A DNA stretch of 32,000 nucleotides from Cupriavidus necator. GTDB taxonomy: Bacteria > Pseudomonadota > Gammaproteobacteria > Burkholderiales > Burkholderiaceae. Shown piece after piece: positions 2,325-27,644 of this stretch (positions are counted from its first letter, which is position 1; every line of letters starts with the position of its first letter). The notes beneath the pieces were generated by a model, which saw nothing but the letters and a program-made list of their open reading frames with translations, was not told the DNA's origin and ran no database searches. Location: the NCBI RefSeq assembly GCF_016127575.1, contig NZ_CP066018.1, positions 3,390,001 through 3,422,000 of the forward strand, given 5' to 3'. A program made the position numbers and the translations under genes.

Positions 2325-2930
2325 GTGACACATCCCATCGTTTTATCCGAAGCCGGCGCGGAATACCTGAAGCTGCCGCCACCGCAGACCGAAGGCGGCA
2401 TGCCGCTGCTGACGGCGCTGCTGCAGCGCCGCTCGACCCGACACTTTGCTGCGCGGAACCTGGATGACACACTGCTGTCGTCCCTGCTGTGGGCGGCTTT
2501 CGGCGTCAACCGCCCGGGCACCGGCCTGCGCACTGCGCCCTCGACCCGCAACTGGCAGGAAATCGACCTGTACGCGGCGCTGCGCGACGGACTGTACGTG
2601 CTTGAACCGGCGGACTGGCGCCTTCGGCTGGTCGTCGGCGCAGACCTGCGCGCGGCGACCGGCCTGCAGGACTATGTTGCCGAGGCGCCATTGAATCTCG
2701 TCTATGTCAGCCGGCTCTCCAGGCTCGATGAGACCGACAAGCCGCTGCGCCAGTTCTATACCGCGCTGGATACGGGGCATATCAGCCAGAACGTTTACCT
2801 CTTCTGCGCCGCGTCCGGGCTGGCCACGGTGGCGCGCGGGCTGCTGGACCGCCGCGCGCTGGCCACTGCCATGCGGCTGGCGCCCGACCAGCGCGTGATC
2901 CTGGCCCAGAGCGTGGGCTATCCGGCGTAA
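2325..2930 (+). CDS. SagB/ThcOx-type nitroreductase-family protein
   Basis: 201 aa. GTG start with GGAG 6 nt upstream. Motifs: LLQRRSTRHF, LLWAAFGVNR, RTAPS, GLYVLEP. C-terminal FMN-fold region: DTGHISQNVYLFCAASGLATV. Paralogue of the 8597..9262 gene. Confidence 0.8.
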   Translation: MTHPIVLSEAGAEYLKLPPPQTEGGMPLLTALLQRRSTRHFAARNLDDTLLSSLLWAAFGVNRPGTGLRTAPSTRNWQEIDLYAALRDGLYVLEPADWRLRLVVGADLRAATGLQDYVAEAPLNLVYVSRLSRLDETDKPLRQFYTALDTGHISQNVYLFCAASGLATVARGLLDRRALATAMRLAPDQRVILAQSVGYPA

Positions 2931-2962
2931 GCCGCCACCCAGGCAGCCAAAGGAGGGGGGTA

Positions 2963-3589
2963 ATGCCATTCATTGACAGGGCCGATGCCGCCGCACAACT
3001 GGCGCGTGCGCTTGCTGGCCACGCAGGAAAACGGCCGCTGGTGCTGGCCGTGCCCCGCGGTGCGGTGCCGATGGGCGCCATCATTGCCGATGCGCTCGGC
3101 GCGGACCTTGACGTCGTGCTCGTGCGCAAACTCGGCGCACCGGGCAACCCGGAGTTCGCCATCGGCGCCGTAGACGAGAGCGGGTGGACCTATCTTACGC
3201 CCTATGCCGCCGCGGCAGGCGCCGACAGCGAATACATCGACCGCGAGCGCGCGGCCCAGCTTGAGGTGCTGCGGCGCCGCCGCGCCGCCTACACGCCGGG
3301 CCGGGAACCGGTCCGCGCCACCGGTCGACAGGTCATCATCGTGGACGACGGCCTGGCGACCGGGGCCTCGATGATCGCCGCGCTGCACGCCATCCGCGAG
3401 CAGAAGCCCGCGCGGCTCGTCTGCGCGGTGCCGGTGGCGCCGCCGCGGACGCTGGAGCTGTTGCAGCCCTATGTCGACGAGGTGGTATGCCTGGAGACGC
3501 CGGCCGGCTTCCGGGCAGTGGGGGAGTTCTACCGCGACTTCTCGCAGGTCGAGGATGCGGAGGTCGTGGCTTGCCTGAAAGGGCGGTAA
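2963..3589 (+). CDS. Phosphoribosyltransferase-family protein
   Basis: 208 aa. Strong RBS AAGGAGGGGGG. PRPP-binding loop VIIVDDGLATGAS. N-terminal RGAVPMG pattern typical of stand-alone putative PRTases found in stress clusters. Confidence 0.85.
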   Translation: MPFIDRADAAAQLARALAGHAGKRPLVLAVPRGAVPMGAIIADALGADLDVVLVRKLGAPGNPEFAIGAVDESGWTYLTPYAAAAGADSEYIDRERAAQLEVLRRRRAAYTPGREPVRATGRQVIIVDDGLATGASMIAALHAIREQKPARLVCAVPVAPPRTLELLQPYVDEVVCLETPAGFRAVGEFYRDFSQVEDAEVVACLKGR

Positions 3590-3614
3590 AGACACGCACA
3601 AGCGGGGGGCACCC

Positions 3615-4271
3615 ATGAAGGGCGACAGGCAGCTGCAGCAGGACGTGACCGAGGCGCTGATCTGGGATCCTGCGGTCCATGGCAACGAGATCGGGGTCCA
3701 GGTCCAGGACGGCGTCGTCACGCTGACCGGGCACCTTGGAACCTTTGCCGAGAAGTACTCGGCGGAAGCGGCCGTCAGGCGCATTCCCGGCGTGCGGGCG
3801 CTGGCCGTGGAACTGGACGTTCACCTGCCCGACGATGCGCGCCGCACCGATGCCGACATTGCCCGGGCCGCTGCCAACGTGCTGTCCTGGGATGCGACGG
3901 TGCCGGCCGACCGTATCCGGATCCTGGTCGAACACGGCGTGGTGACCCTGAGCGGCGATGTCGACTGGTACTACCAGCGCACCGCCGCCGAGCACGCCGT
4001 GGCCGGACTGTTCGGCGTGGTCGGGGTCACCAATGCGCTCGCCATCCGGCCTCGTGCCGACAAGCAGGACGTGGCGGCACGGATCCAGGCGGCCATCGCA
4101 CGCCAGGCTGCCAGCGACGCCGACCAGGTAACCGTGACGGTGAGGGATGGCGCGGTGACGCTGACCGGCACTCTGCGCACGCTGGCCGAGCGCGAGGCGG
4201 CATTCGAAGCGGCCTGGTCTGCACCGGGCGTCAGCGCGGTCGTCAACCAGATCGAAGTCAGGCCCGGCTAG
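3615..4271 (+). CDS. BON-domain protein (OsmY-like, three BON repeats)
   Basis: 218 aa with three repeats of the BON pattern (VQVQDGVVTLTGHL, ILVEHGVVTLSGDV, VTVRDGAVTLTGTL). Each repeat is followed by a ...AE.AA..IPGV..V.N.I.V-type segment. Confidence 0.85.
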   Translation: MKGDRQLQQDVTEALIWDPAVHGNEIGVQVQDGVVTLTGHLGTFAEKYSAEAAVRRIPGVRALAVELDVHLPDDARRTDADIARAAANVLSWDATVPADRIRILVEHGVVTLSGDVDWYYQRTAAEHAVAGLFGVVGVTNALAIRPRADKQDVAARIQAAIARQAASDADQVTVTVRDGAVTLTGTLRTLAEREAAFEAAWSAPGVSAVVNQIEVRPG

Positions 4272-4290
4272 CTCAGGCCTGCACCGTTGC

Positions 4291-5928
4291 TCAGTATTCT
4301 TCGCCGAACATCGACGACCCCGTGCGCATGCCGGCATCGCCCTGGCCGGCGGGGCTGCGCTGAATCGCGATCATGCAGTCCGTCGTCAGCAGCAGGGAGG
4401 CGATCGACACGGCATTTTGCAGGGCCGTGCGTACCACCTTGACGGGGTCGATCACGCCGAGTTCCAGCATGTCGCCATAGCGCTCGGTGCCGGCGTCGTA
4501 GCCGAGCGTGCCCGAGCCGACGCATACCTGGTGCACCACTGCGTCGGCATCCGCACCGGCGTTGGCGGCGATCTGCCGCATCGGCGCGGCCAGTGCCGCG
4601 TGGACGATGTGGCCGCCGGCGGCCTGCTCGGCGTTCGGTGCCTGCCAGGCTTCGAGGGCAGCGCGGGCGCGCAGCAGCGCAACGCCGCCGCCGGCGACGA
4701 TGCCTTCGTCCACCGCGGCGCGGGTGGCGTGCAAAGCATCCTGGAAGCGGTTCTTGCGCTCGTGCAGCGCGCTCTCGGTGGCCGCACCCACCTTGATCAC
4801 AGCCACGCCGCCGGCCAGCCGGGCCAGGCGCCGCTGCAGCGCCTCACGCTCATAGTCCGAGCGCACCTCGTCCAGGCGCAGGCGCAGGGCGGCAATGCGC
4901 TCGGCCACGCGCGGGCGTTCGTCACCGGAGCCGATCAGGGTGGTGGTGTCCTTGTTGACCTCCACGCGGCGGGCTTCGCCAAGCTGTTCCAGCGTGACGT
5001 GCTCGAGCGAGATGCCGGCCTGCGGTGAGACCACCGTGGCGCCGGTCAGCGCGGCCAGGTCGCCCAGCTGCTCGGTGCGCGAGTCGCCGAAACCCGGTGA
5101 CTTGACTGCGCAGCTCTTCAGCGCGCCGCGCAGGTTGTTCACCACGAGCGTGGCCAGGGCCTCGCCCTCCACATCGTTGGCGATGACCAGCAAGGGCCGG
5201 CCAGCGTGGCTCACGGCCTCAAGGACCGGCAGCAGTTGCGCGATGGCGGCAATGTTCGCGTCGCACAGCAGCACCAGCGGCGAATCCAGCACGACGGCAC
5301 GGCTCTCGTTGGTCGCGAACAAGGGCGAGAGGTAGCCGCGATCGATCAGCGCGCCGTCGGCGATGTCGAGTGCGTCGTCCAGCTTGGAGCCATCCTCCAC
5401 GCTGATTGCGCCATCCTTGCCGACCCGCTCGACAGCCTGCGCCACCAGCGTGCCGACGGTCTGGTCGCCGCTGGCCGAGATGGTGGCGATCTGGCGCATC
5501 TCGCCGGTACTGCTGCAGGGCCGGGCGCTTTCCAGCAAGGCGCTGGCGACCAGCTTGCCGGCGGCCTCGATGCCGCGCTTGAGTTGCATGGGGTCGTGGC
5601 CGGCTTCGACGTATTTCACGCCCTCAGCCACGATCGCGTGGGCCAGCGTGGTCGCAGTGGTGGTGCCATCGCCAGCGATCTCGCTGGTGCGCACCGCGGC
5701 CTCGCAGAGCAGGCGGGCGCCCATGTCGGCGAACGGATTGGCCAGCGTCACCGACTTCGCCACGACCACGCCGGAATTGGCGACCAGCGGCACCATGTCG
5801 GGCCGCTCCACGATCACGTTGCGGCCTCCCGGGCCCAGCGTGACCTTGACCGCGTGGGCCAGTTGTTCCACGCCGCTCAGCATCATGCGGCGCGCGCCTT
5901 GGTGGAAGATAAGTGTTCTGGCAGGCAT
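4291..5928 (-). CDS. groEL: Chaperonin GroEL paralogue (no adjacent groES)
   Basis: Track ORF trimmed to ATG 5928 (GGAG upstream). 545 aa with AGDGTTTAT, VKVTLGPGGRNV and GGGVALL motifs. The C-terminus ends ...GMRTGSSMFGEEY instead of a GGM repeat tail. Confidence 0.9.
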   Translation of the reverse strand: MPARTLIFHQGARRMMLSGVEQLAHAVKVTLGPGGRNVIVERPDMVPLVANSGVVVAKSVTLANPFADMGARLLCEAAVRTSEIAGDGTTTATTLAHAIVAEGVKYVEAGHDPMQLKRGIEAAGKLVASALLESARPCSSTGEMRQIATISASGDQTVGTLVAQAVERVGKDGAISVEDGSKLDDALDIADGALIDRGYLSPLFATNESRAVVLDSPLVLLCDANIAAIAQLLPVLEAVSHAGRPLLVIANDVEGEALATLVVNNLRGALKSCAVKSPGFGDSRTEQLGDLAALTGATVVSPQAGISLEHVTLEQLGEARRVEVNKDTTTLIGSGDERPRVAERIAALRLRLDEVRSDYEREALQRRLARLAGGVAVIKVGAATESALHERKNRFQDALHATRAAVDEGIVAGGGVALLRARAALEAWQAPNAEQAAGGHIVHAALAAPMRQIAANAGADADAVVHQVCVGSGTLGYDAGTERYGDMLELGVIDPVKVVRTALQNAVSIASLLLTTDCMIAIQRSPAGQGDAGMRTGSSMFGEEY

Positions 5929-5997
5929 GAAAAACTCCGCATTGACAATCAGTGGGTCGGGCTTGCTACTACGGTAGTTGCCGTGCAGGTCCGCACG

Positions 5998-6011
5998 TTG
6001 ATGCAACGCAA
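5998..6011. promoter_or_regulatory. Degenerate FNR/FixK-like box TTGAT-GCAA-CGCAA (TTGCG-TTGC-ATCAA in groEL orientation)
   Basis: 8/10 match. Centre is ~77 bp upstream of the groEL ATG 5928. Confidence 0.35.
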
Positions 6012-6201: not shown

Positions 6202-6215
6202 TTGATCCAGCCCAA
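6202..6215. promoter_or_regulatory. FNR-like half-degenerate box TTGAT-CCAG-CCCAA
   Basis: Lies in the 518-bp divergent groEL/hydrolase intergenic region. With the preceding T it matches the 2238-2252 site at 14 of 15 positions. Confidence 0.35.
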
Positions 6216-8596: not shown

Positions 8597-9262
8597 CTAG
8601 ACCGGCGCGCTGTCATGCGGAGCCGGACGCCCGATGGTCTGGGACAGGATCGGTTCCTCGTCCTCGTTCAGCGACATATGCTCGGCCAGCTGGCGCCGGT
8701 TAAGCCAGCCGCGCACCACCGCGCCCAGCCCGGCCGAGGCGCAGTAGAGATAGGCGTTCTGGACCATGGCGCCGGCCGCGGCGGCAGCGAAGGTCTCGTG
8801 CAGCTTGGGCGGGACGTCCTGCATCCGGCCATGGTTGGCGACGTAGACCAGGTCCAGCGGCGCCATGCCGACGAAGTCCTGGTAGCCGGTCATGCTGCGC
8901 ACGTCTGCCGCGCGCTTCAGCACCAGGCAATGGTGGATCGGGTCGTAGCGGTAGAGGCCGGCGGGCAGCGCCGCGTAGACGTCGATCACCGCCTCGCCGT
9001 GCGGCGAAGGGGCTGTGCGGCCGCCGCCCTGGGAGCGGTTGACGCCCGCCGCGGCCCACAGCAGCTCGCTCAGCTGCTGCAGTGGCAGCGGCTGCTCGTC
9101 GAACTCGCGGGTGCTCATGCGCTGCCACAGCGCCCCCATCAGCGGCAGGCCATTGGTGCGGTCCGGCTGTGGCAGGGCGATGACCCGCTCGCTCGTGCCG
9201 GAGGCGGGGCGTGGCAGCAGGTCCTTGATGGGCTGGTAGGGGATGCGCTTCAGTTCGTCCAT
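8597..9262 (-). CDS. SagB/ThcOx-type nitroreductase-family protein (paralogue of 2325..2930)
   Basis: Motifs: WQRMSTREF, LLWAAAGVNR, GGRTAPSPHG, GLYRYDPIHH, AGAMVQNAYLYCASAGLGAVV. Start is uncertain: ATG 9262 is chosen, with ATG 9274 and the track start 9313 as alternatives. Confidence 0.8.
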   Translation of the reverse strand: MDELKRIPYQPIKDLLPRPASGTSERVIALPQPDRTNGLPLMGALWQRMSTREFDEQPLPLQQLSELLWAAAGVNRSQGGGRTAPSPHGEAVIDVYAALPAGLYRYDPIHHCLVLKRAADVRSMTGYQDFVGMAPLDLVYVANHGRMQDVPPKLHETFAAAAAGAMVQNAYLYCASAGLGAVVRGWLNRRQLAEHMSLNEDEEPILSQTIGRPAPHDSAPV

Positions 9263-9444
9263 GGGAGCTCGCATTTGTTGCAAAGAGCGGCGCGAGCGCT
9301 CTGCGCATGGCACCGGTATGGACGAATGTAGGCGCTGCCCCCGGCCGTGGATTGCGCTCCGTCAAGCAGCGTCGATGGGGCCTTCCCTGGTGTGAAAGCA
9401 AGGGGTGCTGGCGCTGCTTTAGATGGCGGCGCCGAGCTCTGGCG

Positions 9445-11016
9445 TCAGCCGCAGCCGGGTGCGGCGGGGCCCGTAACGCTGCCCGGCGAGGCGACGCAGG
9501 CACGCTCGGCTTCGGTCAGCGGCTCCTGGACACGCATCTGCCACGCCAGCACGCCGTCGTCGGCATCCGACAGGTCCCCGCCCGCCCGGGCACGCGCGGC
9601 GATGCGGGCGCGCAGCGTCTCAGGGCTGGCTTCGCAGGTGACGATGGCGAAGGGCACGCCAAGGCGGCGCGCCTGGGCAGCAAAGCGTTCGCGCTCGGCG
9701 CGGACCAGGAAAGTCGCGTCGGCAAGCATCGGGAACCCGGCGCGGCAGCCGAGCCGGCAGACCGCGAGCAGGCGTCGGTAGGTCCGTGCCGTTTCGCTCG
9801 CGGCATACCAGCCACCCGCGGGCATCACGCCGCGGTGCAGGCCCTTGCGTACCGCGTCGGAGCGTACGCGTACCATCGACCCGGCCTCGCTCATCTGTGC
9901 CGCAACCGTGGACTTGCCGCTGCCGGACAGGCCATGCATCAGCACCATCGGCCCGCGACGGCGGCTGAGGCATCGCCATGCCAGCGCAAGCAGCCTGCCT
10001 GCCTCGGCCTGCGCCGGCGCCATGGACGCGCCCGCGGCGTGCTTCTGGCAGCCGCGCTCCAGCAGCACGCGCGCGCGCACCAGGGCCCGCATGGCGAGAT
10101 AGAAGGGCAACACGGCCAGCGCGCCGTAGTCTCCCGACTGCTCCAGGTAGCCGTTGAGCAGCCGGTAGGCCAGCGCCGGTCGGCCATGGTGCAGCAGGTC
10201 TATGACCGGGAAGGCCAGGTCGCTGATGGTGTCGGTCCAGCGCAGGGCGGCGTCGAACTCCAGGCAGTCGAATGGGGTCGGCACGCCGTTCAGCAGCACG
10301 ATGTTGCCCAAATGCAGGTCGCCATGGCACTCGCGTACATGGCCGTTGCGCAGGCGTGCCCGGAACGCATCCGTCAGCCGGGTGGCCTCGCTGCGCGCCC
10401 GCAGGGCCACGCGGCTGGCCAGGTGCGTGGCCGACGTCAGCCGGCCAATGCCGCCCAGGCACTCCGCAAGCGTCGCGTCGATGCGGGCCGGCGTGCCAAA
10501 GCTATCGGAAGGGGCGGCAGGGGGCTGCGCCTGGTGAAAGGATGCAATGCTGCGCGCCAGCGCATCGATATGGCCCGGCTCCAGCCGGTCCGCAACGATT
10601 CTTGCGCTGAGCAGGTCTTGCTGGTCGAAGCGCCGCATCCGGACCGCATGCTCGATCGGTATGCCGCCGCCACCGATGCGCACCGAGCCGGGCGTGGGGC
10701 CCGCCAGGATCGGCACCACATCCAGATACAGGGCAGGTGCGAACCGGCGGTTCAGGCGTAGTTCGGTCTCACAGTCGTCGCGGCGTGCCTGCGCGGTGGA
10801 GAAGTCGACAAAGTCGAACCGCACCGGCTTGCGCACCTTGTAAGCAAAGTCCCCGGCCAGGAAGACACGGGAGATATGCGTCTCGATGACCTGTACTGCC
10901 GGCGCCGGGTGGGGGTAGGCGTCCGGCTGCTGCAAGGCGGCCATCAACGCCGCGTCGTCCCATTGACTTTCCATGTCCCTTGCCGCCTGCGCCCTTGCGC
11001 TGTTGTGAACTGCCAC
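9445..11016 (-). CDS. Bifunctional APH-like phosphotransferase / P-loop (AAA_33-like) kinase fusion protein
   Basis: 523 aa. The N-terminal ~330 aa form a protein-kinase-like fold (IETHISRVFLAGDFAYKVRKP, catalytic HGDLHLGNIV). The C-terminus carries Walker A GLSGSGKST. The track start 11016 is a GTG; ATG 10974 is an alternative. Confidence 0.8.
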   Translation of the reverse strand: MAVHNSARAQAARDMESQWDDAALMAALQQPDAYPHPAPAVQVIETHISRVFLAGDFAYKVRKPVRFDFVDFSTAQARRDDCETELRLNRRFAPALYLDVVPILAGPTPGSVRIGGGGIPIEHAVRMRRFDQQDLLSARIVADRLEPGHIDALARSIASFHQAQPPAAPSDSFGTPARIDATLAECLGGIGRLTSATHLASRVALRARSEATRLTDAFRARLRNGHVRECHGDLHLGNIVLLNGVPTPFDCLEFDAALRWTDTISDLAFPVIDLLHHGRPALAYRLLNGYLEQSGDYGALAVLPFYLAMRALVRARVLLERGCQKHAAGASMAPAQAEAGRLLALAWRCLSRRRGPMVLMHGLSGSGKSTVAAQMSEAGSMVRVRSDAVRKGLHRGVMPAGGWYAASETARTYRRLLAVCRLGCRAGFPMLADATFLVRAERERFAAQARRLGVPFAIVTCEASPETLRARIAARARAGGDLSDADDGVLAWQMRVQEPLTEAERACVASPGSVTGPAAPGCG

Positions 11017-11875: not shown

Positions 11876-11889
11876 TTGACAGGCATCAA
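11876..11889. promoter_or_regulatory. Near-consensus FNR/FixK box TTGAC-AGGC-ATCAA
   Basis: 9/10 match to TTGAT-N4-ATCAA. It lies in the 448-bp divergent region, with centre ~120 bp upstream of the lipoprotein ATG 12003 and ~330 bp from the LRAT ATG. Confidence 0.55.
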
Positions 11890-12002: not shown

Positions 12003-12476
12003 ATGCTCTCGTCCCTGATGATTGCCGTAGCTGCTGCGGGTTGTGCGTTCCGCTATGGGCAAGCCGGATCATACTTGCAGCCAATGGCCGAATATGGCGT
12101 CTCGTATGTGTCGGGCGGGGACAGCGAAGCCGGCATGGACGCGATGCTCGCCATCGCGGACCGCTTCAACGTACGTCTGACCATGGTGGACGCCGCACGC
12201 GGGGACCCGCTGCCGGATGCTGCCATCCTCGTGTCCAGTCAGGACGGGCGCTCGATATTGCATGCGAGCGCAACCGGGCCGATGTTCTATCTCCGGCTTC
12301 CCACGGGCGTCTATTGGCTGGCAATTGGTTATCAGGGCTGGGTCCGGACCCGCGATATCGCCGTCGACGGCCAGGCACTCGACATGACGTTTCGCCTGCC
12401 CGTGAGGACGCTGGAGGACGACTGGCTGCTTTGCAGCTCGCCGCGCGGCAACGTCGCGGTTACCGCCGTCTGGTGA
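12003..12476 (+). CDS. Putative lipoprotein with carboxypeptidase-regulatory-like beta-sandwich
   Basis: Track ORF 11895..12476 trimmed to ATG 12003 (GGAG ~10 nt upstream). Lipobox-like IAVAAAGC. The pattern MFYLRLPTGVYWLAIGYQGWVRTRDIAV...MTFRL resembles CarboxypepD_reg-type domains. The n-region has no positive charge, so the start and lipoprotein status are uncertain. Confidence 0.5.
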   Translation: MLSSLMIAVAAAGCAFRYGQAGSYLQPMAEYGVSYVSGGDSEAGMDAMLAIADRFNVRLTMVDAARGDPLPDAAILVSSQDGRSILHASATGPMFYLRLPTGVYWLAIGYQGWVRTRDIAVDGQALDMTFRLPVRTLEDDWLLCSSPRGNVAVTAVW

Positions 12477-12521: not shown

Positions 12522-14822
12522 TCACTCCGTGGGCGCATCTTCGCGCAGCGCATGGAACAGCTCGTCCTCCTGCGCGCAGTGCAGCCGCAATACGGCCTCG
12601 AGCCCGTAGAGCAGCCGCTGGTACTCCCTGACCCTGCCGGCGTCTGGCCCATCCGGCGGTGAGTCGTCCGCCATCCGCTGCAGTAGCCGGATCACCCGGA
12701 AGATCTCGCGGTGCATCGCGCTCATCGCCGCCAGCGGATCCTCGCCTCCGACCAGCAGCGCGAGTTGCGGATAGAGCTGCGCGTCATCGTGCTGTTCGTG
12801 GGGCAAAAGTGTTCCGCTGAGGGATGCGCACAAGCGGCGCAGTTCCGTGCCCGCGGCGTGGCCAGGCATGGCTGGCAACCTGTCCGCGAGGCTGCGGATC
12901 TGTTCCATCAGCGGCGCCAGCGCGGCGTGCTCCTGGTTCAGGCGCTCGGCGTCGGCCGTGGACAGGCGTTCCGCCGGCACCGACGGGTCGGCGCGCAGGG
13001 CGCGCAGCGCATTGGCAATGACCAGCACATCGATGACCTCCTGCAGCATGGCGCCGGCCAGTGGCGGCAGGTAGCCGAACGCGGCGACCGCCATCGCGAC
13101 GAACGACAGGCCCATGCCGGCCATGGCGCTTTGCACGGCCAGCCGGCGCGACCGGCGGGCGATGCGCACCGCGTCCACCAGCCGGTCAAGCCGGTCCACC
13201 AGCAGCACGACATCCGCGGCTTCCGACGATGCCGCGGCACCTCGTGCGCCCATGGCCACGCCGACGTCCGCGGCGGCCAGCGCCGGTGCATCGTTCACGC
13301 CGTCGCCCACCATCAGCACAGTGCCGTCGTGGCGCGCCGCCTCGATCGCGGCAAGCTTCTGCGAGGGGGTGAGGTTGGCATGGACCTCGGTCACGCCCAG
13401 CATCGCGCCGACGGTCTCGGCGACGTCGAGCCGGTCTCCCGTGAGCATGGCCAGGCGCCGTATGCCCGCCTTGCGCAGCAAGCGCAACGCGCGCGGGGTG
13501 TCCATGCGAATCAGGTCCACGAACTGCAGTGCCCCAACCAGCACGCCGTCGACGGTGACCAGCGAGACCGAGGCGCCTTCGAAGGCCGCGCGCTGCAACA
13601 TGGCCTGGCACCACGGTGGCCCGGCATCGCCGCCGCCGGCAAAGGCGGGCGATCCCACCGCCACCACGTGCTCGCCAACCCGCCCGGCAATGCCAGCACC
13701 GGCGGTCTCGGTCACGCCTGACGGCAGGTCCAGGGCCAGGCCTCGCTCGCGCGCCGCGGTCGTGATGGCTTCGGCGACAACATGCCCGGAGGCCTGGGAC
13801 AGCGAAGCGGCGACGCGCAGCACGTCGGGCGCCGGCCATCCGGGCGCGCTCTCGATGGCCGCCAGGCGGGCCCTTCCGCCCGTCAGCGTCCCGGTCTTGT
13901 CGAAGAAGAGGATGCTCGCCTGCGACAACCTTTCAAGCGCGCCGCCGCCCTTGACCAGCACGCCGCGCCCGGCGCAACGCGACACCCCGGACACAATCGC
14001 CACCGGAACGGCCAGGATCAACGGACAAGGGGTGGCGACCACCAGCACCGCCAGCGCCCGCGCGAGTTCACCACTGGCAAGCCAGGCAAGCCCGGCGACG
14101 AGCAGGGTGACAGGCACCAGCCACAGTGCATAACGGTCGGCCAACCGCGCCGCGGGCGGGCGCTCCGCGCGGGCGGTGCGCACCAGCCTGGCGATGCCGG
14201 CGAAGGTGCTGTCTGCCGCGGTGGTCGCTGCCACCATCTCGAACGGGGTGCCGGCGTTCAGCACACTGCTGCGCACGGTCTCGCCAGGGAGTCGCTGCCG
14301 TGGCAGCGACTCGCCAGTCAGGGCAGATTCGTCCAGCGTCGCCTGGCCCAGCAATGCGCCGTCCACGGGTACGACTTCGCCATGCCGGACCAACAGGCGA
14401 TCCCCCGGACTGACCACATCGAGGGAAACCGCGCGCCATTCTCCGTCCTCGAAGCGGTTGGCGGACTGCGGGGCGCGGCTGAGCAGGGCGGACATCTCCC
14501 GCTCGGAACGGGCCTGCGCATAGTTCTCAATGGCCCTGCCGCTCTCGATCATCAGGGCCAGTACGGCAGCCGCGAGGAATTCGCCAAGCGCCAGCGCCAG
14601 CCCGATCGCCAGCAGCGCCAGGACATCGACGCCCGCTTCCTTCCGGCGCAGCGACCGCACGATGGCGACGATCAGCGCGCCGGCGACGACCAGCGCGCCA
14701 ACCGCCCAAGCGAGCCTCGCGGCGAGCGCTTCGCCGAAGGCAAAAAGCAGCAAGCCAGCGCCCAGCGTGCCGGCCGCGACTGGCAGCAAGCCGAGGTCAA
14801 ACTTGCGAAACCCGATGTGCAT
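12522..14822 (-). CDS. P1B-5-type heavy-metal P-type ATPase with C-terminal hemerythrin (HHE) domain
   Basis: [17 protein letters not shown], and transmembrane TPCP (VVATPCPLILAVP) instead of CPC. There is no N-terminal metal-binding domain. The last ~150 aa carry His/Glu hemerythrin motifs (NQEHAAL, LPHEQHDD, MHREIF, LHCAQEDELFH). Start placed at ATG 14822 (CAGGGGA upstream); the track start 14933 is a GTG without an RBS. Confidence 0.85.
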   Translation of the reverse strand: MHIGFRKFDLGLLPVAAGTLGAGLLLFAFGEALAARLAWAVGALVVAGALIVAIVRSLRRKEAGVDVLALLAIGLALALGEFLAAAVLALMIESGRAIENYAQARSEREMSALLSRAPQSANRFEDGEWRAVSLDVVSPGDRLLVRHGEVVPVDGALLGQATLDESALTGESLPRQRLPGETVRSSVLNAGTPFEMVAATTAADSTFAGIARLVRTARAERPPAARLADRYALWLVPVTLLVAGLAWLASGELARALAVLVVATPCPLILAVPVAIVSGVSRCAGRGVLVKGGGALERLSQASILFFDKTGTLTGGRARLAAIESAPGWPAPDVLRVAASLSQASGHVVAEAITTAARERGLALDLPSGVTETAGAGIAGRVGEHVVAVGSPAFAGGGDAGPPWCQAMLQRAAFEGASVSLVTVDGVLVGALQFVDLIRMDTPRALRLLRKAGIRRLAMLTGDRLDVAETVGAMLGVTEVHANLTPSQKLAAIEAARHDGTVLMVGDGVNDAPALAAADVGVAMGARGAAASSEAADVVLLVDRLDRLVDAVRIARRSRRLAVQSAMAGMGLSFVAMAVAAFGYLPPLAGAMLQEVIDVLVIANALRALRADPSVPAERLSTADAERLNQEHAALAPLMEQIRSLADRLPAMPGHAAGTELRRLCASLSGTLLPHEQHDDAQLYPQLALLVGGEDPLAAMSAMHREIFRVIRLLQRMADDSPPDGPDAGRVREYQRLLYGLEAVLRLHCAQEDELFHALREDAPTE

Positions 14823-15246
14823 GGCGAACCCGATCCCCTGCGTAACTGGCGCCGGTTGCTGGGATACTCCCGCTGATGCCTTCAGGCGATCGCAGATCCT
14901 GCCGCGCTGGCGGCTGCGCAATCCCGGCTGCACGCCGAATCAGGCACTGTGTAATGGTGATGTTAGTCCAACAGGCACCGGGCCGATAATAGCCTCGGCC
15001 GCAGGCAGGGCGCGCCAGCCAGCCCTGGAGATAGTCGATGGCTGCAGGGGCCGCGGTTCGCGGCGCCACGGAGATGATTCGGCACGGCGCGGACCCGCAG
15101 TGGCTGTCGGCGGTACTGCCGTATTCGCTCACTCCTTGATGCACGCGGCGATTACGGCGCATTTTCGGTTCAAATTGCGCTTTGGCCGGTGCCGCCCTAT
15201 ATATTTGGGGGGCGAGAAGCACTCTCAGACAATCATCGTCCATTCC

Positions 15247-16971
15247 ATGAGCAACCCTTTGGCGCCCGCGGGCAAGGTGCAGCCTTCGTCCGAACGTTCT
15301 CACTCCCTTGCCATGGCGATTGGCAGTGTGACGGTCGTTCTCGTCCTCGCGGGGGGATGCTTCTTGATGGCTACCGTCGAATGGTATCGGCAGTTCCTGG
15401 CGCCGTTGGTGCTCTTGACGGGCGCAGGCATCGGGCTCGCCGTGGGACTTTACTGGAACCGGTTGAGGAAGCTTACAGGGAGTAGTGATATCCAACGCGT
15501 GGCGGATAGCGAAGCCCAGTTGGCGGGGATCATCCGATCTTCGATGGAAGCGATCATCACCGTGGACGGTGACCAGCGCGTCGTACTGTTCAATCCCATG
15601 GCAGAAACGCTATTCGCCTGGCCGGCCGAACTTGCAATCGGGCGCTCCCTGAGCGACTTCATTCCCCACCGCTTTCGGGCCGCCCATGCAGAGCATGTGC
15701 GCCGGTTTGGGATCACGGGCGTTTCGGACCGCGAGATGGGACTCCAACGGGCGCTGTGCGCCATGCGTCGGGACGGAAGCGAGTTCCCTATCGAAGCATC
15801 CATTTCACAGATCTCTGTCGGCGAGGCCAAGTTATACACTGTGATGCTGCGCGATATCACCGAACGCGTGCGTGCTGAGGAAGCCCTGCACCGAAGCCTT
15901 CAGCTTGTGAAGGAAAGCGAGGCGCGATTGGCGGGAATTATCCGCTCCTCCATGGAAGCGATCATCACCGTGGACAATGAACAACGCGTAGTGCTGTTCA
16001 ACCCAATGGCGGAGACGTTGTTCGCCTGGCCCGCCGAACTCGCGATTGGCCGCCCCCTCGGCGACTTCATTCCCGAACGCTACCGGGCCGCTCATGAGGA
16101 GCACGTGCGTCGGTTTGGGATCACGGGCGTATCGGATCGTCAGATGGGACGTCAACGGGCACTCTACGCTCTGCGTCGTGACGGCACTGAATTCCCTATC
16201 GAAGCATCCATCTCGCAAACGGCCCACGAAGGCACGAAGCTATATACCGTGATGCTGCGTGATATCACGGAGCGGGCACGCGCGGAGGCGGCCCTGCGCC
16301 GCTCACGGGAAGAACTGCAACAGCTTTCAGATGGGATACTCGCTGCCCGCGAGGAGGAGAGGCGCCGCATTGCACGCGAGCTGCACGATGACCTGGGCCA
16401 GCGCCTGAGCGCGCTTAAGATGGACATGGCTATGCTCGGCGCGGACGTCGATGAGGGCCGTGACACAGCAGGACTGCTAGACGAGATTGGTGCCATAAAC
16501 GGCGTCATCGACAATACTGTTGCCTCGGTCCGACGCATTGCCAGTGACCTACGGCCGGCCTTGCTGGACGAGTTGGGAATGATTCCTGCCATTGAGTGGT
16601 TGGCCGATGATTTTGCCAACCGGTACGGATTGGCGGTGAGCGTGGACGGTGCCGAGGCTGACGTCCCCGCGCAGACGGCAATCGCCATGTTCCGCATTGT
16701 CCAGGAGGCATTGAGCAATGTCGTCCGGCATGCCGACGCGACCACCGTGCATATTCAGCTCACCCAGTCAGAGGGCCAACTTGTGTTGCGGGTGCAAGAC
16801 AATGGGGTGGGCTGGGACAAGGTCTCCTCCGCAAGCGGGCCACGCAAATCGCTGGGACTCCTTGGCATCCGGGAGCGGGCACGCCTTCTGGGTGGCAGCT
16901 TCACCATCGACAGCACTCCCGGCAAGGGCTTTTGCCTAATCGTGCAAATTCCCCACGAAAGGGTGGCCTGA
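15247..16971 (+). CDS. Membrane-anchored sensor histidine kinase: 2 TM, tandem FixL-like PAS, HisKA_3, HATPase_c
   Basis: The 813-aa track ORF is trimmed to ATG 15247, because the upstream part is antisense to the ATPase gene. Two hydrophobic helices with a ~7-aa loop. H-box ELHDDLGQRLSALK is NarX/DevS-type HisKA_3. N/G boxes: EALSNVVRHA, DNGVGW, GLLGIRERA. No RBS is obvious, so the start is approximate. Confidence 0.85.
   Translation: MSNPLAPAGKVQPSSERSHSLAMAIGSVTVVLVLAGGCFLMATVEWYRQFLAPLVLLTGAGIGLAVGLYWNRLRKLTGSSDIQRVADSEAQLAGIIRSSMEAIITVDGDQRVVLFNPMAETLFAWPAELAIGRSLSDFIPHRFRAAHAEHVRRFGITGVSDREMGLQRALCAMRRDGSEFPIEASISQISVGEAKLYTVMLRDITERVRAEEALHRSLQLVKESEARLAGIIRSSMEAIITVDNEQRVVLFNPMAETLFAWPAELAIGRPLGDFIPERYRAAHEEHVRRFGITGVSDRQMGRQRALYALRRDGTEFPIEASISQTAHEGTKLYTVMLRDITERARAEAALRRSREELQQLSDGILAAREEERRRIARELHDDLGQRLSALKMDMAMLGADVDEGRDTAGLLDEIGAINGVIDNTVASVRRIASDLRPALLDELGMIPAIEWLADDFANRYGLAVSVDGAEADVPAQTAIAMFRIVQEALSNVVRHADATTVHIQLTQSEGQLVLRVQDNGVGWDKVSSASGPRKSLGLLGIRERARLLGGSFTIDSTPGKGFCLIVQIPHERVA
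15511..16308 (+). repeat. Tandem in-frame duplication (period 408 bp) encoding the two PAS modules
   Basis: Copy 1 starts ~15511 and copy 2 ~15919. By my hand alignment 104 of 125 aligned residues are identical (83%). Identical 20-24 nt runs include atggaagcgatcatcaccgtggac, cggtttgggatcacgggcgt and ttccctatcgaagcatccat. Confidence 0.85.
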
Positions 16972-17281: not shown

Positions 17282-17842
17282 TCATCCGCCTGGCGCCATC
17301 TTTCCACCCATGCCCGGACCCATCCCCGGCCCCATGCCCGGACCCATGCCCGGACCCATGCCCATGCCCGGGCCCATGCCTTGGTCGTTGGCCATCGTCT
17401 GCATCATTTCCTGCATGAACGCCATGTGACTACCCGCCATGTCTTGGCACATCTGCATTTGATTTGATGGGGCGTTTCCCTTGGCGACTCTCTTGCCAGG
17501 AGCCATACGAGCAGGGCCGCCCATTTTCATCATGTCCTTTTGCATGATGGCCATTGCATCTTGCATGACCTGATGGCGTTCAGCCAAGAGGGCCTGACGC
17601 TCCTCCGGCGTTTTGGCACGCGAAAGCCGCTCTCTGATGGCACGCAGGTGGGCAACCTGGGCGTCCAGCTTTGCATCGCTGGAAACTCCGGGAGTTACGA
17701 CCGGAGCCTTATCTTGCCGCTTTTCAGGATGGTGCTGCTCATGCTCAATGCCGGTAGCCGGCGACGCCGGGAAAGCTGCTGGCGCCCACGCTAGCACGGC
17801 GGCCGCAGTGATAAGGGTAGAGAGGCGATGGTTGGTGGACAT
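17282..17842 (-). CDS. Secreted Met-rich protein with C-terminal (GPGM)n repeat; possible periplasmic Cu(I)/metal-binding or CpxP/Spy/ZraP-like protein
   Basis: 186 aa. RBS AGGAGGA. Signal peptide LITAAAVLAWAPAAFPA|SP. I counted 23 Met in the C-terminal ~105 residues. Tail: GMGPGMGMGPGMGPGMGPGMGPGMGGKM. The function is inferred from composition only. Confidence 0.7.
   Translation of the reverse strand: MSTNHRLSTLITAAAVLAWAPAAFPASPATGIEHEQHHPEKRQDKAPVVTPGVSSDAKLDAQVAHLRAIRERLSRAKTPEERQALLAERHQVMQDAMAIMQKDMMKMGGPARMAPGKRVAKGNAPSNQMQMCQDMAGSHMAFMQEMMQTMANDQGMGPGMGMGPGMGPGMGPGMGPGMGGKMAPGG
17309..17380 (-). repeat. In-frame 12-nt coding microsatellite (CATGCCCGGNCC on the + strand = GPGM), five units plus two 6-nt half-units
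   Basis: Units at 17309-20, 17321-32, 17333-44, 17345-56 and 17363-74. Half-units catgcc at 17357-62 and 17375-80. Confidence 0.85.
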
Positions 17843-17907: not shown

Positions 17908-17921
17908 TTGATTGGGATCAA
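17908..17921. promoter_or_regulatory. Perfect FNR/FixK consensus box TTGAT-TGGG-ATCAA
   Basis: 10/10 match. Centre is 72.5 bp upstream of the Met-rich protein ATG (17842). This fits a class II (-41.5) activator site with a ~30-nt leader. Confidence 0.75.
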
Positions 17922-23439: not shown

Positions 23440-23626
23440 CTGCGTTTCGTATATCGCGCTCGCACTGTCGCGAAAGGCGAAGACTCAACCACACCACAAC
23501 GACCGGACAGGACAGCAGGAGTAGGCCAACCAGTATGGTGAACGGTGTCAGCCCAAACCGGTAGACGATAGCTGCCGCGAGTAGCATTGCAAAGGCAGCG
23601 CAAATCCATGCCACCGGGTGTTTCAT
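23411..23626 (-). CDS. Small two-TM membrane protein translationally coupled to the Cu ATPase
   Basis: 71 aa. Its ATG overlaps the ATPase stop (ATGA, 23623-23626). Two hydrophobic helices, then a charged tail [19 protein letters not shown]. Confidence 0.55.
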
Positions 23627-26106
23627 CTCGCCTCCAGGCTGGCAATTCTGGCGCCAAGTCGTACACGCTTCAGCAATGCGGAGTTGGCTACCACACTCAA
23701 TGAGGACAGTGCCATTGCTGCTGCGGCAAAGATGGGGTTCAGGAGTCCAAGTGCGGCGATAGGGATGCCGATGGTGTTGTAGATGAACGCCCAGAAGAGG
23801 TTCTGTTTGATTTTGCGCATCGTCGCGCGGGACAGCTCAATGGCGGCAACCACGTCACGCACGTCATCGCGAATGAGGATGATGCTCCCAGTTTCCTTCG
23901 CGACATCCGAGCCTGAGCCGATGGCAATGCCGATGTCCGCTGCGGCAAGCGCCGGTGCGTCATTGACGCCGTCTCCCACCATGGCCACGACCTCCCCTTG
24001 CTTCTGTAATGCGTGAATGGTCTCGACCTTGTCTTCCGGCATCACCTCGGCAATGACATGCTCAATGCCAACCTGCCGGCCGATTGCCTCGGCGGTGCGG
24101 CGGTTGTCACCGCTCAGTAGCACAACCTTGATGGCGCGCGCCTTCAATGCCGCGATTGCCTCGCTCGCTTCCGGTTTCACAGTGTCAGCCACGGCCACTA
24201 CGCCGAGCAATTGTGTGCCGGCGCCGACCAGCATGGCTGTCTTGCCATCGGCCTCGAGCTTCCCGAGTACAGATTCGGCCGATTCGATTGGGATGCCTTG
24301 GCGTGCAAAGAGACGCCGGTTGCCCAGCCAGACTTGCTGACCGTCGACGAGGCCCTGAATGCCCATGCCAGACAATGCGCTGATGCTGGCTGCCTTGGGA
24401 ATGGTGAGCGCGCGATACTGTGCGGCGCGCACGATGGCTTCGCCCAAAGGGTGCTCGGACCCGGCTTCCACAGCGGCAGCAAGAGTCAGCAGGTCAGATT
24501 TCTCTCGCCCAGAAAGGGGGATGACATCGGTCAAGGTCGGCTCTCCGCGCGTAATCGTCCCGGTCTTGTCAAAGACAACCGCGGTGAGCTTCTCGGCCCG
24601 CTCCAGCACTTCACCGCCGCGTATCAGGATGCCGTTGTCCGCGCCCTTGCCGACGCCGACCATCAGCGCTGCTGGCGTGGCGACGCCTAGCGCGCAGGGG
24701 CAGGAGATAATCAGAACAGCCACGAATGCGAGCAGTCCCTGCGGAAAATGACCGGCGACGGTCCATCCCACTAATGCCAGCATCGCGACCGAAACAACCG
24801 CAGGTACGAAGTAGCCGGTGACCTGGTCCGCCAGTCTCTGAATCTGCGCGGTGCTGGCCTGGGCGTCCTCGACCATCCTGATAATCTGAGCGAGAGCGGT
24901 GTCCGCTCCGATTTTTGTGGCCTGGAAGGTGAAGGCGCCACTGCGGTTTAGCGTGCCGCCAATGACAGCGGCACCAGGCTTCTTTTCCACGGGCATCGAC
25001 TCGCCGGTCAGCATCGATTCATCGACACTGGATTGGCCATCGATAACCTTGCCATCAGTGGGAATCTTCTCGCCGGGGCGTACAACGACCGCTTCGCCCA
25101 CCATGATGCTTTCAGCCGGGATTTCCACCTCCGTCCCGTCGCGAAGCACGTGAGCGACGGCGGGGCGCAGGTCGAGCAGGCGTCGAACAGCGGCGGAGGA
25201 TTTCTTCTTGATGATTTCCTCCATGTATTTCCCCAGCAGCACGAAGGCGATAATGACCGCCGACACCTCAAAGTAGACGTCTCGCTCTTCGACCTTGACG
25301 GGCAGCCAGGACGGAAAGAACAGCACTACTACGCTGTAGAAGTAGGCGACGGACGTCCCCAGGGCGATGAGGAAGTCCATATTGATATTGCGCGTCCGGA
25401 TGGCGTTCCATGCGCCCTTGTAGAAGCTCCAGCCGCCAATGAACTGGACCGGCGTGACGAGAAGGAATAGCCACATCCCCCACGTGAACCAAGGCAGGGC
25501 GGGAATCGGGGCCCAAGTCACGAGCGTCGCGCCGGCTGCCAGTGCCAGGAAGGCGCCAGCCCGCAGCACCGCCAGCGCGAGCACGCCCGTGAGCGCAATG
25601 GTCACGCGCGTCTTCATGGCTTTCAACTCGCTCTCTGGCGACTCGAAGGTCCGAAGGCAGCTCTCGCTGCAGAAGTAGTACTTGCGGTTGCCACGCTCGG
25701 CGGAGAGGGCCGTAGCCTTGTCCACCATCATTCCGCAAATAGGGTCCTTGGCGAGTTGCTTGGCGGCGTGGGAAGCAAGCGCGGGCGTCGCCGCAGGGAT
25801 AGGAGCGACGCCGGGTGGGCTAGGACTGCGGGAGGGCCCAGCCGAGCTACGCCTATCAACGGGGTGAAGAACATATTTCGCCGGGTTGGCTAGGAAAACC
25901 TGCTCACAGTGTGGAGAGCAGAACCAGTATCGCTTCTGGTCGAGCTCCGTGCTGGTAGCGGCCTCCCGTGGGGAGATCTCCATGCCACAGACCGGGTCAC
26001 GCACGAGCTGCTGCGAGGCGGCCGGGCCTGCGGCGGCCGTTGGAGCTGCCTGGGCTTCGGTGAGGCCGTAACTCCCCCCATTAGGGGTGGTGGACTTGGT
26101 CGGCAT
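23623..26106 (-). CDS. Cu(I)/Ag(I)-type P1B-1 P-type ATPase with two N-terminal YHS/TRASH domains
   Basis: 827 aa. RBS AAGGAGAGG. Two copies of DP(V/I)CGM...(Y/W)FCS..C. Transmembrane CPC (IISCPCALG), YN (FIYNTIGIP) and [12 protein letters not shown] signature. DKTGTIT and [10 protein letters not shown] present. No HMA (CxxC) domain. Confidence 0.9.
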
Positions 26107-26188: not shown

Positions 26189-26202
26189 TTGATTTCAATC
26201 AA
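26189..26202. promoter_or_regulatory. Perfect FNR/FixK consensus box TTGAT-TTCA-ATCAA
   Basis: 10/10 match. Centre is 89.5 bp upstream of the ATPase ATG (26106), within the 240-bp gap after the SAM synthetase gene. Confidence 0.75.
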
Positions 26203-26346: not shown

Positions 26347-27531
26347 CTAGAAGACCGCTACCGTGCCATAGACCAGCTCATTGACCAAGGCAGGAAGCTG
26401 CGCCAGCTGTAGCGTCGCGAGTTCACGAACTTGCTGCTCCTGGGCGCTCGAGAGGCCGCGCTCGGCCACGACATCAATGGCAAACAGTTGGGGCTGGTCG
26501 ATGGGGCGTCCAATTCCGGAGAGAAGCCGGACGACGACTTCATCCGCGCCATCCACGCTTGCCTGAATATGAGAGGCTAACCGGTGGGCGAGCACGTTGT
26601 AGAGCTTGCCGACATGTGACGCCGGGTTCTTGCCCGCTGCGGCCTCCAGCGACATTGGCCGATAGGGGGTAATCAGGCCATTGACCCGGTTTCCGCGGCC
26701 GACCTGGCCGTCATCACCATGCTCAGCACTTAAGCCAGTGACCGTCAGGTAAATCCCGCTTTCGTCGCAAGCATCCCGGCGATCGAGGGTATTGATTGCA
26801 ATCTCACAGTCGGTGCCGATGTGCTCGGCCAGATACGACCCAATCCGGCCCTTGAGGATGAAGTACTCATCGACGCCTTGGACGCATCGGTCGACAAAGG
26901 CCAGCGCAAGAGTGAGACGGTGATGCGCACCCAGCCGACTCCCCATCACCTTGTAATCGAGGCCCGCCGCCTCAAACATTCCCCTGTCGGCACGTGAGCG
27001 CAGAAGGTCGGCAATCAACAGCACCGCTCTTTCAAGCGATGAGAGTGGCGCATAGCCGACGCCAAAGGATGTGTCATTGGACAGCGAAAGAGACGCTGCA
27101 TTGGTCACGCGCCGGAGGTTCGGGGCCGAGGGGCGGAGGATTGGCTCGATCCGGATGTCATTGCCAATGTCGCCCAAGGATGTCGCCAGGTACTCGCGAA
27201 TGGCCTGCTCGACAACTAGCTCGGCCTTGGCCGACGGAAGTTCGGTAACAGGGCCGGATACTATCAACCGCGTTGAGCGCAGCACTTTGCCACCGCCGAA
27301 CTTTGGCGCGCTCATGCCGCCGATGAGTAGCGCCTTGTCCAGATTGAAGTGCTGGACTGCGCCATAGGCTTCGAAGTATGCGCGGCACAAGGCGCGAGCC
27401 GCAGCTTCGACAGCCCCATCGCATAGGCTATCGGGATGTCCGATGCCCTTGTGCTCGCACATTTCCGTCTGCTCACCTCGCCATGACGGCCCACGCGAGA
27501 TAGCAATCGCTATGTTCTCCATGATGGTCAT
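26347..27531 (-). CDS. Archaeal-type S-adenosylmethionine synthetase (methionine adenosyltransferase, MJ1208/PF01941-like)
   Basis: 394 aa. RBS AAGGGGG. Motif EHKGIGHPDSLCDG near the N-terminus, with length and overall pattern as in archaeal-type MAT. It does not resemble bacterial MetK. Confidence 0.75.
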   Translation of the reverse strand: MTIMENIAIAISRGPSWRGEQTEMCEHKGIGHPDSLCDGAVEAAARALCRAYFEAYGAVQHFNLDKALLIGGMSAPKFGGGKVLRSTRLIVSGPVTELPSAKAELVVEQAIREYLATSLGDIGNDIRIEPILRPSAPNLRRVTNAASLSLSNDTSFGVGYAPLSSLERAVLLIADLLRSRADRGMFEAAGLDYKVMGSRLGAHHRLTLALAFVDRCVQGVDEYFILKGRIGSYLAEHIGTDCEIAINTLDRRDACDESGIYLTVTGLSAEHGDDGQVGRGNRVNGLITPYRPMSLEAAAGKNPASHVGKLYNVLAHRLASHIQASVDGADEVVVRLLSGIGRPIDQPQLFAIDVVAERGLSSAQEQQVRELATLQLAQLPALVNELVYGTVAVF

Positions 27532-27630: not shown

Positions 27631-27644
27631 TTGACGCGAATCAA
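27631..27644. promoter_or_regulatory. Near-consensus FNR/FixK box TTGAC-GCGA-ATCAA
   Basis: 9/10 match. Centre is 106.5 bp upstream of the SAM synthetase ATG (27531) and 46.5 bp upstream of the ATG (27684) of the decayed formate/nitrite transporter gene. A weaker box, TTGCC-TAGC-ATCAA, follows at 27660-27673. Confidence 0.6.

Follow-up and report, generated by a model that had tools for sequence, protein, structure and literature searches.

A P1B-5-type metal ATPase with a hemerythrin-like tail in a hypoxia-type gene island of Cupriavidus necator, and its orthologue in the Burkholderia lxa locus

The DNA analysed here, hereafter the window, is a stretch of 32,000 nucleotides from the Cupriavidus necator genome (contig NZ_CP066018.1, positions 3,390,001 to 3,422,000). 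At 12522-14822, on the minus strand, it holds a gene of 766 codons plus stop whose product, as read from its sequence, is a P1B-5-type heavy-metal ATPase with complete catalytic motifs and a hemerythrin-like C-terminal tail. The gene lies within a hypoxia-type island that spans the window from approximately 2.3 to 27.7 kb, and it is divergent from a gene encoding a sensor kinase. A preliminary description of the gene had proposed a P1B-5 ATPase with a built-in O2/iron sensor.

The open reading frame (ORF) can be read from two start codons. The longer reading on the minus strand, 12522-14933, starts at a GTG and gives 803 residues, while the ATG at 14822 gives the 766-residue product. The in-frame extension of 37 residues up to the GTG (14823-14933, minus strand) is probably not translated, as the homologues begin at the ATG at 14822 and a Shine-Dalgarno-like AGGGGA is found about 13 nucleotides upstream. 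Close homologues share this Met start and are 763-766 residues long, and no Cys or His motif is found within the 37 extra residues. An identical 766-residue protein is encoded in three C. necator assemblies, including chromosome 1 of strain H16 (AM260479.1, at about 2.15-2.17 Mb), where it corresponds to CAJ93087 (UniProt Q0KA84). In public records it goes under 'silver efflux P-type ATPase' and 'P-type Zn(2+) transporter', names that are probably both wrong. Literature searches on the expression or function of the H16 gene returned nothing relevant.

Pfam recognises an E1-E2_ATPase domain at residues 117-285 (1.2e-39) and a Hydrolase domain, comprising the P and N domains, at residues 305-519 (2.9e-22; 13266-13910, minus strand, as are all the motifs given below for the ATPase). 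Among the NCBIfam models, that of heavy-metal P-type ATPases, TIGR01525, reaches 500.5 bits with a cut-off at 346.25, and TIGR01512 (Cd family) is also above its cut-off with 456 against 313.5 bits. TIGR01511 (Cu family), with 330 bits, stays below its cut-off of 397, and the equivalog models of ZntA and CopA remain far under theirs. The coordinates of the pump and tail motifs were checked codon by codon. The actuator domain carries TGES at residues 169-172 (14307-14318), the phosphorylation motif DKTGT is found at D308-T312 (13887-13901) and the hinge GDGVNDAP at residues 506-513 (13284-13307). In membrane helix M4 the motif CPC is replaced by TPCP (T264, P265, C266, P267; 14022-14033), and M6 contains QEVID at residues 594-598 (13029-13043). 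Conservation was counted in 20 representatives from an exhaustive search with the tail; their identity to the window protein is 37-53% over the whole length and 31-47% in the tail. TPCP is kept in 19 of these diverse family members, Q594, E595 and D598 of M6 are invariant in all 20, and S565, S573 and M577 of M5 are family-invariant. C266 is presumed to form the transmembrane metal site together with these residues of M5 and M6. The M6 motif QExxD reportedly defines the P1B-5 class, and it presumably falls where ZntA has its invariant Asp, as judged from a manual alignment. The class has been defined by a PCP motif and linked to Ni2+/Fe2+ (2026 review, PMC13460109).

An AlphaFold2 model of the full protein, built on a 30-sequence alignment, has a mean predicted local distance difference test score (pLDDT) of 82 and a predicted template modelling score (pTM) of 0.74. 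In it eight membrane helices are found at residues 13-28, 32-59, 65-78, 82-115, 223-250, 253-285, 545-581 and 587-607, besides the domains A, P and N, and four long helices are bundled at the C-terminus. The model thus has the eight-helix P1B topology (MA, MB, M1-M6), with MA, MB, M1 and M2 assigned to residues 13-104 (14511-14786) and M5 and M6 to residues 545-607 (13002-13190). The best Foldseek matches of the model are ZntA (4UMW), CopA (4BBJ) and the P1B-4 pump sCoaT (7QBZ), with E-values of 1e-32 to 1e-35. No P1B-5 structure was found in the PDB, and no solved P1B ATPase there matches the tail. Pfam gives no match, to HMA or any other domain, ahead of residue 117, and the first of the membrane helices starts near residue 13, which bears out the absence of an N-terminal metal-binding domain claimed in the preliminary description. 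Its assignment of the protein to the P1B-5 class is likewise supported, both by TPCP in place of CPC in M4 and by an identity of approximately 50%, tail included, to the presumed Nia protein of Sinorhizobium meliloti described below.

The cytoplasmic tail comprises residues 612-766 (12525-12989) and is predicted to consist of a short linker and a four-helix HHE bundle, with about 12 residues between M6 and the bundle in the AlphaFold2 model. Residues 626-758 (12549-12947) match Hemerythrin/HHE, PF01814, with an E-value of 2e-15 and 57.8 bits against a cut-off of 25.3. When the tail is modelled alone it forms a four-helix bundle with a pLDDT of 89. Helix 1 contains H632 (12927-12929), the first His of the first HHE repeat, which is present in 20/20 representatives. 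Helix 2 contains H675-E676-x-x-D679 (12786-12800; HxxxD/E), of which H675 and E676 are invariant while position 679 is Asp or Glu in all 20. Helix 3 contains H704-x-E706 (12705-12713), with both residues present in every representative; this is HxE instead of the canonical HxxxH. In helix 4 the stretch H748-C-A-Q-E752-D753-E754 (12561-12581; HxxxE/HxxxxD) has H748 and E752 in 19/20, Asp or Glu at position 753 in 17/20, and E754 in 20/20. The motif published for P1B-5 tails is H-HxxxE-HxE-HxxxxD, as opposed to H-HxxxE-HxxxH-HxxxxD in canonical hemerythrins (PMC9388753). All seven positions of the P1B-5 motif are filled in the window protein, by H632, by H675 and D679 (Asp for Glu), by H704 and E706, and by H748 and D753.

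When the PDB was searched with a profile built from the family's tails, YtfE (also called RIC; 5FNN) came out best with an E-value of about 1e-3, followed by PF0695 (3CAX) and NMB1532, while a search with the single tail sequence gave nothing meaningful (importin, E 0.3). In the profile alignment H632, H675, D679 and H704 correspond to H84, H129, E133 and H160 of YtfE, which we take to be four of its six iron ligands. The two proteins share the logic of a two-fold HHE repeat. YtfE is, however, a soluble two-domain protein that is not fused to a transporter, and the two are only marginally similar and superpose poorly (TM 0.40). The tail fits a construction from two HHE repeats, H632/H675/D679 and H704/H748/E752, with extra conserved carboxylates, and from its sequence this ligand set should bind two iron ions. 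The His, Glu and Asp ligands announced in the preliminary description are thus present and conserved, namely H632, H675, E676, D679, H704, E706, H748, E752, D753 and E754. An incomplete ligand set had been named there as grounds for rejecting the proposal; the alignment revealed the full P1B-5 set, and as every position of the motif is occupied this objection does not apply. As for the term hemerythrin itself, it stands as far as PF01814 and all the P1B-5 motif positions are concerned, but it does not extend to the canonical five-His set.

A Cys, C749 (12576-12578), directly follows the His ligand of helix 4 (LHCAQE). It is Cys in 11/11 aligned Burkholderiaceae, and in the other lineages sampled the position is Phe in 14/19, including Nia, and otherwise Thr, Met, Leu or Asn. 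C749 might serve to tune the di-iron site, or it might make the tail sensitive to thiol redox chemistry.

Canonical hemerythrins and the hemerythrin-based sensors DcrH, Bhr-DGC as well as Bhr-HD-GYP share PF01814 with the tail, for which a four-helix bundle like theirs is predicted. In these sensors a di-iron O2/redox sensor is fused to an output domain (PMC9388753). Their output is a chemotaxis or cyclic di-GMP module, whereas the fusion partner in H16 is an ion pump.

Searching with the tail alone retrieves 704 clusters at 50% identity (E<=1e-3), and full-length members have 760-790 residues, so the subgroup, called rare in the preliminary description, is so only in relative terms. The fusion of pump and tail is common in Cupriavidus, Paraburkholderia, Burkholderia (B. 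cepacia complex) and rhizobia, and among the matches listed in the contig scan it is found in Streptomyces and Acidimicrobiia too. Tail-less relatives of about 610 residues exist; the neighbourhoods of two of them were inspected, one of which lacks hypoxia-type genes and one of which is beside a CBS-BON gene, a sample too small to build on. A member from a Nitrosotalea metagenome-assembled genome (DATIWG010000028.1) was considered as an archaeal P1B-5 protein and rejected, as its contig has 69% G+C and bacterial-type neighbours. Besides the P1B-5 gene, this contig encodes a Crp/Fnr regulator together with a P2-type cation ATPase. Its G+C content is far too high for Nitrosotalea, and it is probably a binning contaminant in this public archaeal genome.

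So far only the P1B-5 proteins of Acidothermus cellulolyticus and S. meliloti have been characterised (2022 review, PMC9388753; the 2026 review likewise counts two), as the preliminary description had stated. A 50-kb stretch of the S. meliloti replicon pSymA contains one ORF that matches the window protein from residue 91 to the C-terminus with 49-51% identity, the tail included, and this ORF is presumed to be SMa1163/Nia. Like the window protein it has TPCP in M4 and QExxD in M6, each within an identical context, and no N-terminal metal-binding domain, and the pattern H / HExxD / HxE / HxxQE recurs in its hemerythrin-like tail. Differences are found at position 753, which is Leu in the presumed Nia and Asp in H16, and at position 749, where Phe corresponds to the Cys of H16. 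They also differ in setting, Nia being carried by pSymA in S. meliloti while the H16 gene is chromosomal and its host a free-living betaproteobacterium. Both genes are found in replicon regions tied to low oxygen, and a BON-domain homologue lies 8 kb from the presumed Nia on pSymA. According to reviews of the work of Zielazinski et al. (2013), one of them PMC9388753, the expression of Nia is highest in nodules. The gene has further been reviewed as induced by Fe2+ and Ni2+, with a nia mutant that accumulates Ni and Fe. The A. cellulolyticus protein (A0LQU2), from an actinobacterial thermophile, was compared with that of H16 by its published motif only; its C-terminal di-iron domain has the motif H-HxxxE-HxE-HxxxxD (PMC9388753), all positions of which are filled in H16.

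Orthologues in the Burkholderia cepacia complex are 62-66% identical to the window protein and share all three of its Pfam domains. One of them is P0111 of B. contaminans, with 62% identity. It is preceded there by genes for NAPRTase, two ABC components, a hypothetical protein, a CBS protein, an APH/AAA_33 protein and a VTT-domain protein. It is followed by a universal stress protein (USP) gene, a hypothetical gene, another USP gene, DUF1488, HSP20, a nitroreductase, BON and a small gene, and further on by genes for a sulfate transporter, a small protein and lysine decarboxylase. This order matches WR30_RS16520-RS16615 gene for gene (Table 2, PMC4981469), where the ATPase gene WR30_RS16560 is listed as the counterpart of B. 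cenocepacia BCAM0318. Because the gene order is identical to that of Table 2, the Burkholderia orthologue of the H16 ATPase gene can be equated with BCAM0318 of the low-oxygen-activated (lxa) locus. The mycobacterial DosR regulon contains a cation-transporting ATPase, which we take to be CtpF. Sass et al. loosely compared BCAM0318 with this mycobacterial enzyme; in their study the gene, annotated as a 'cation-transporting ATPase', was 15-fold up at low oxygen (Sass et al. 2013), and an Anr-like TGA-N6-TCA motif was found throughout the lxa locus (Sass et al.).

The Burkholderia ATPase promoter has an Anr-like palindrome, TTGACTCACGTCAA, 166 bp upstream. In Burkholderia this palindrome goes together with an adjacent tandem-USP gene; the H16 gene lacks both and has a FixL-like kinase instead. 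USP genes accompany the ATPase in other relatives as well. In C. taiwanensis its neighbours include USPs, DUF1488 and a Crp/Fnr regulator besides the kinase, and those in C. respiraculi comprise seven USP genes together with HSP20 and a pair of BON genes. A tandem-USP gene lies immediately upstream of the ATPase gene on the same strand in P. sacchari, a USP gene adjoins it in another Burkholderia, and in Streptomyces pratens three USP genes are found less than 6 kb away. A 2025 review and a 2026 paper on the lxa locus contain neither the word 'hemerythrin' nor the word 'ATPase', and the lxa papers searched make no mention of a hemerythrin domain or of the P1B-5 class. BCAM0318 is also rarely named in the searchable open literature. 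It therefore seems that nobody has yet recognised, in the open literature that could be searched, that the lxa ATPase is a P1B-5 pump bearing a hemerythrin-like tail.

The island around the H16 gene contains two nitroreductase-family genes and genes for a phosphoribosyltransferase, a BON protein, a GroEL paralogue, a DUF883 protein and a DksA/TraR protein. Further members encode a protein with APH and AAA_33 domains, a PPK2, a CopA-type ATPase with YHS domains and an archaeal-type S-adenosylmethionine (SAM) synthetase. The nitroreductase gene at 8597-9313 (minus strand) is the counterpart of BCAM0279, and the APH and AAA_33 gene at 9445-11016 (minus strand) that of WR30_RS16550, both counterparts belonging to the lxa locus of Burkholderia in its extended form. 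The second nitroreductase, the phosphoribosyltransferase, the BON protein (counterpart of BCAM0280) and the GroEL paralogue are encoded within 2325-6006. TTGAT-N4-ATCAA boxes occur four times in the window against 0.31 expected, and the looser TGAY-N4-RTCA seven times against 1.24 expected. Four Anr/FNR boxes, at 11876, 17908, 26189 and 27631, are in promoter positions. One of them, TTGACAGGCATCAA (11876-11889), lies upstream of a gene at 12003-12476 (plus strand), and a perfect box, TTGATTGGGATCAA (17908-17921), lies upstream of a gene for a 186-residue protein at 17282-17842 (minus strand). The seven boxes, the lxa orthologues and the adjacent FixL-like kinase agree with the placement of the ATPase in a hypoxia-type cluster that had been suggested for it.

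The kinase gene (15247-16971, plus strand) is separated from the ATPase gene by the divergent intergenic region 14823-15246 and encodes 574 residues in which two tandem PAS domains precede HisKA_3 and HATPase. For either PAS domain the best match is the heme domain of FixL (PDB 1DP6, 8JS5). In each of them a His aligns with the proximal His of FixL, with PERYRAAH and PHRFRAAH corresponding to PEPDRSRH. From its sequence the kinase is plausibly a direct O2 sensor and possibly a double-heme one. No response regulator was found among the scanned ORFs adjoining the kinase gene. The same kinase is found next to the P1B-5 ATPase in C. taiwanensis.

A number of further observations concern the neighbours of the ATPase gene. 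The gene at 12003-12476, which is convergent with it, encodes a small, probable lipoprotein with a lipoprotein-like N-terminus (…AVAAAGC), and its box lies about 115 bp upstream; the product has no Pfam or NCBIfam match. The 186-residue protein has no family match either and is 95% conserved in C. necator C39. The GroEL paralogue (4291-6006, minus strand; TIGR02348, 654 bits) has no adjacent GroES-sized gene, and the TTG listed as its start probably precedes the true one by about 26 codons. The divergent promoter regions of a nitroreductase gene and of the GroEL / alpha-beta-hydrolase pair hold TTGATCCATCCCAA at 2239-2252 and TTGATCCAGCCCAA at 6202-6215, variant boxes that are nearly identical to each other and may be sites of another Crp/Fnr-family regulator.

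The second P-type ATPase of the window (23623-26106, minus strand) is CopA-type, with TIGR01511 above its cut-off, and has two N-terminal YHS/TRASH domains and no HMA domain. It is preceded by the perfect Anr/FNR box TTGATTTCAATCAA at 26189-26202, and after it come two small genes, DUF2933 and DUF5676, and one for a methyltransferase of the ICMT family. This YHS ATPase is found beside the P1B-5 gene in C. taiwanensis and is absent from C. necator C39. The archaeal-type SAM synthetase (26347-27531, minus strand; PF01941; NF003366, 555 bits) occurs here in a betaproteobacterial host, has the Anr/FNR-type box TTGACGCGAATCAA at 27631-27644, about 100 bp upstream, and looks like a low-oxygen-specific alternative enzyme. 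In C. necator C39 the island is located on a 1.19-Mb replicon labelled plasmid (p1, 516178-554475) and is mosaic relative to that of H16. It lacks the kinase, LRAT, the block of GroEL, BON and phosphoribosyltransferase genes, and the YHS ATPase. A near-perfect Anr box, TTGATTCACATCAG, is found there 376 bp upstream of the ATPase gene and has no counterpart in H16.

On balance we find it somewhat probable that the protein is a Nia-orthologous P1B-5 pump that exports Fe2+/Ni2+ at low O2 and is regulated by its di-iron tail. The metal site in the membrane would consist of one Cys, that of TPCP in M4, and the hard oxygen ligands Q594, E595 and D598 of M6. Fe(II) has been described as more abundant in hypoxic niches (2025 review), and under oxygen shortage, as ferrous iron builds up, the pump would export Fe2+ from the cytoplasm (along with Ni2+ or a comparable divalent ion). 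The di-iron tail would act as a built-in regulator, much as other P-type ATPases are tuned by cytosolic metal-binding domains or by regulatory domains at the C-terminus, and would inform the catalytic core both of its iron loading and of the O2/redox state of its di-iron site. For H16 we infer the substrate, the export under hypoxia and the direction of regulation by the tail, and transport may, hypothetically, be modulated by O2 through the tail.

Several observations weigh against this reading. The tail departs from the canonical five-His set in having I708 where the His of helix 3 is expected; as helix 3 holds HxE and not HxxxH, there are four His and not five. No O2-carrier hemerythrin in the PDB was reached by the tail profile at E<=10, and a Foldseek search with the tail model gave the HHE-domain protein 3CAX as its best match, with a query-normalised template modelling score (TMq) of 0.68, a root-mean-square deviation of 3.1 and a non-significant E-value of 0.2, followed by generic helical bundles. 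A comparison in hhalign with a sequence taken to be that of Methylococcus bacteriohemerythrin gave a probability of only 6.8%, with a local match that places H704...H748xxxE752 of the tail on the first H...HxxxE of the bacteriohemerythrin, which illustrates an internal duplication of H...HxxxE in the tail. At the level of transcription, the region upstream of the ATPase gene (14823-15246) contains no Anr/FNR box (TGA-N6-TCA) at up to two mismatches, so that for H16 an induction at low O2 is assumed on the strength of its neighbours and orthologues; no common regulatory motif was found when the upstream regions of four Cupriavidus orthologues were aligned. Finally, a nia deletion in S. meliloti CCNWSX0020 gave no sensitivity to Ni, Zn, Cd, Cu or Pb (review), which makes the physiological substrate uncertain.

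The tail may alternatively be a pure sensor of the substrate iron, equivalent to the N-terminal metal-binding domains of CopA and ZntA and without any role in O2 signalling, so that the pump turns on once the labile Fe2+ pool fills the di-iron site. This explanation, which we regard as rather unlikely though still a serious competitor, agrees well with an ATPase that has no N-terminal metal-binding domain of its own. It also agrees with a tail that has two HHE repeats, four His and extra carboxylates, which is not the set of an O2 carrier, and whose nearest solved relative, YtfE/RIC, is a di-iron protein of iron-centre repair and not an O2 carrier. The induction of nia by Fe2+ (review) points the same way, and the question of iron versus O2/redox sensing by P1B-5 tails is described as unsettled (PMC9388753), in line with what the preliminary description had said of the role of the domain. 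Speaking for oxygen, on the other hand, the Nia tail has an unusually stable oxy form while the tail from A. cellulolyticus undergoes rapid autoxidation (PMC9388753), and both properties mean that O2 reacts with the site. The steady placement of the gene among low-oxygen genes also suggests a link to O2, but transcriptional control alone could explain it. At the other extreme the tail could be a direct post-translational O2 switch, and the pump an effector of bacterial low-oxygen survival programmes that is conserved but has gone unrecognised. The reduced tail would then free the pump to expel the rising Fe2+ when oxygen is lost, and the oxidised tail would shut it upon re-oxygenation. This is an unlikely proposition. 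If true, such a switch would guard against Fenton damage at the transition from anoxic to oxic conditions without transcriptional delay, and the pump would serve the lxa-type islands of Burkholderiaceae as well as the USP-rich clusters of Streptomyces.

The relationship to YtfE can be read in yet another way. YtfE binds nitric oxide (NO) and acts in the repair of nitrosatively damaged iron centres, and the tail might accordingly sense NO or the general redox state and couple metal export to nitrosative stress during denitrification by H16. The Anr/FNR-type boxes of the island and the two nitroreductase-family genes nearby would suit this idea. No NO reductase gene and no NorR/NsrR-type gene were, however, found among the scanned ORFs of the window, and B. 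cenocepacia, which is obligately aerobic and does not denitrify, retains the gene in its lxa locus; we therefore consider a role in NO sensing quite improbable. Least probable of all, and in our view very much so, is that the public annotation is right and that the pump exports Ag+/Cu+ or Zn2+/Cd2+ with a merely incidental hemerythrin-like tail. The names given by the sources and the TIGR01512 score above cut-off are in its favour. They are opposed by TPCP instead of CPC in M4, by QExxD in M6, by the TIGR01511 score below cut-off and the much lower ones of the ZntA and CopA equivalogs, by a nearest characterised relative that is tied to Ni/Fe, and by the separate CopA-type pump 9 kb away.

Of those metal-pump subclasses that have received any study, P1B-5 is one of the most poorly understood. 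The present analysis leaves the class itself unchanged and places a conserved member of it in C. necator H16. This organism is genetically tractable and grows aerobically, micro-aerobically and by denitrification. The identification of BCAM0318 as a P1B-5 pump joins the metallobiochemistry of these enzymes with the literature on hypoxia in cystic fibrosis, a connection not found in the searchable open literature. The link to the lxa locus also opens the question of tail function to experiment in organisms for which low-oxygen phenotypes are already at hand. Should the tail indeed gate the export of iron by oxygen, the ATPase would be a rare case of a transporter bearing its own gas sensor.

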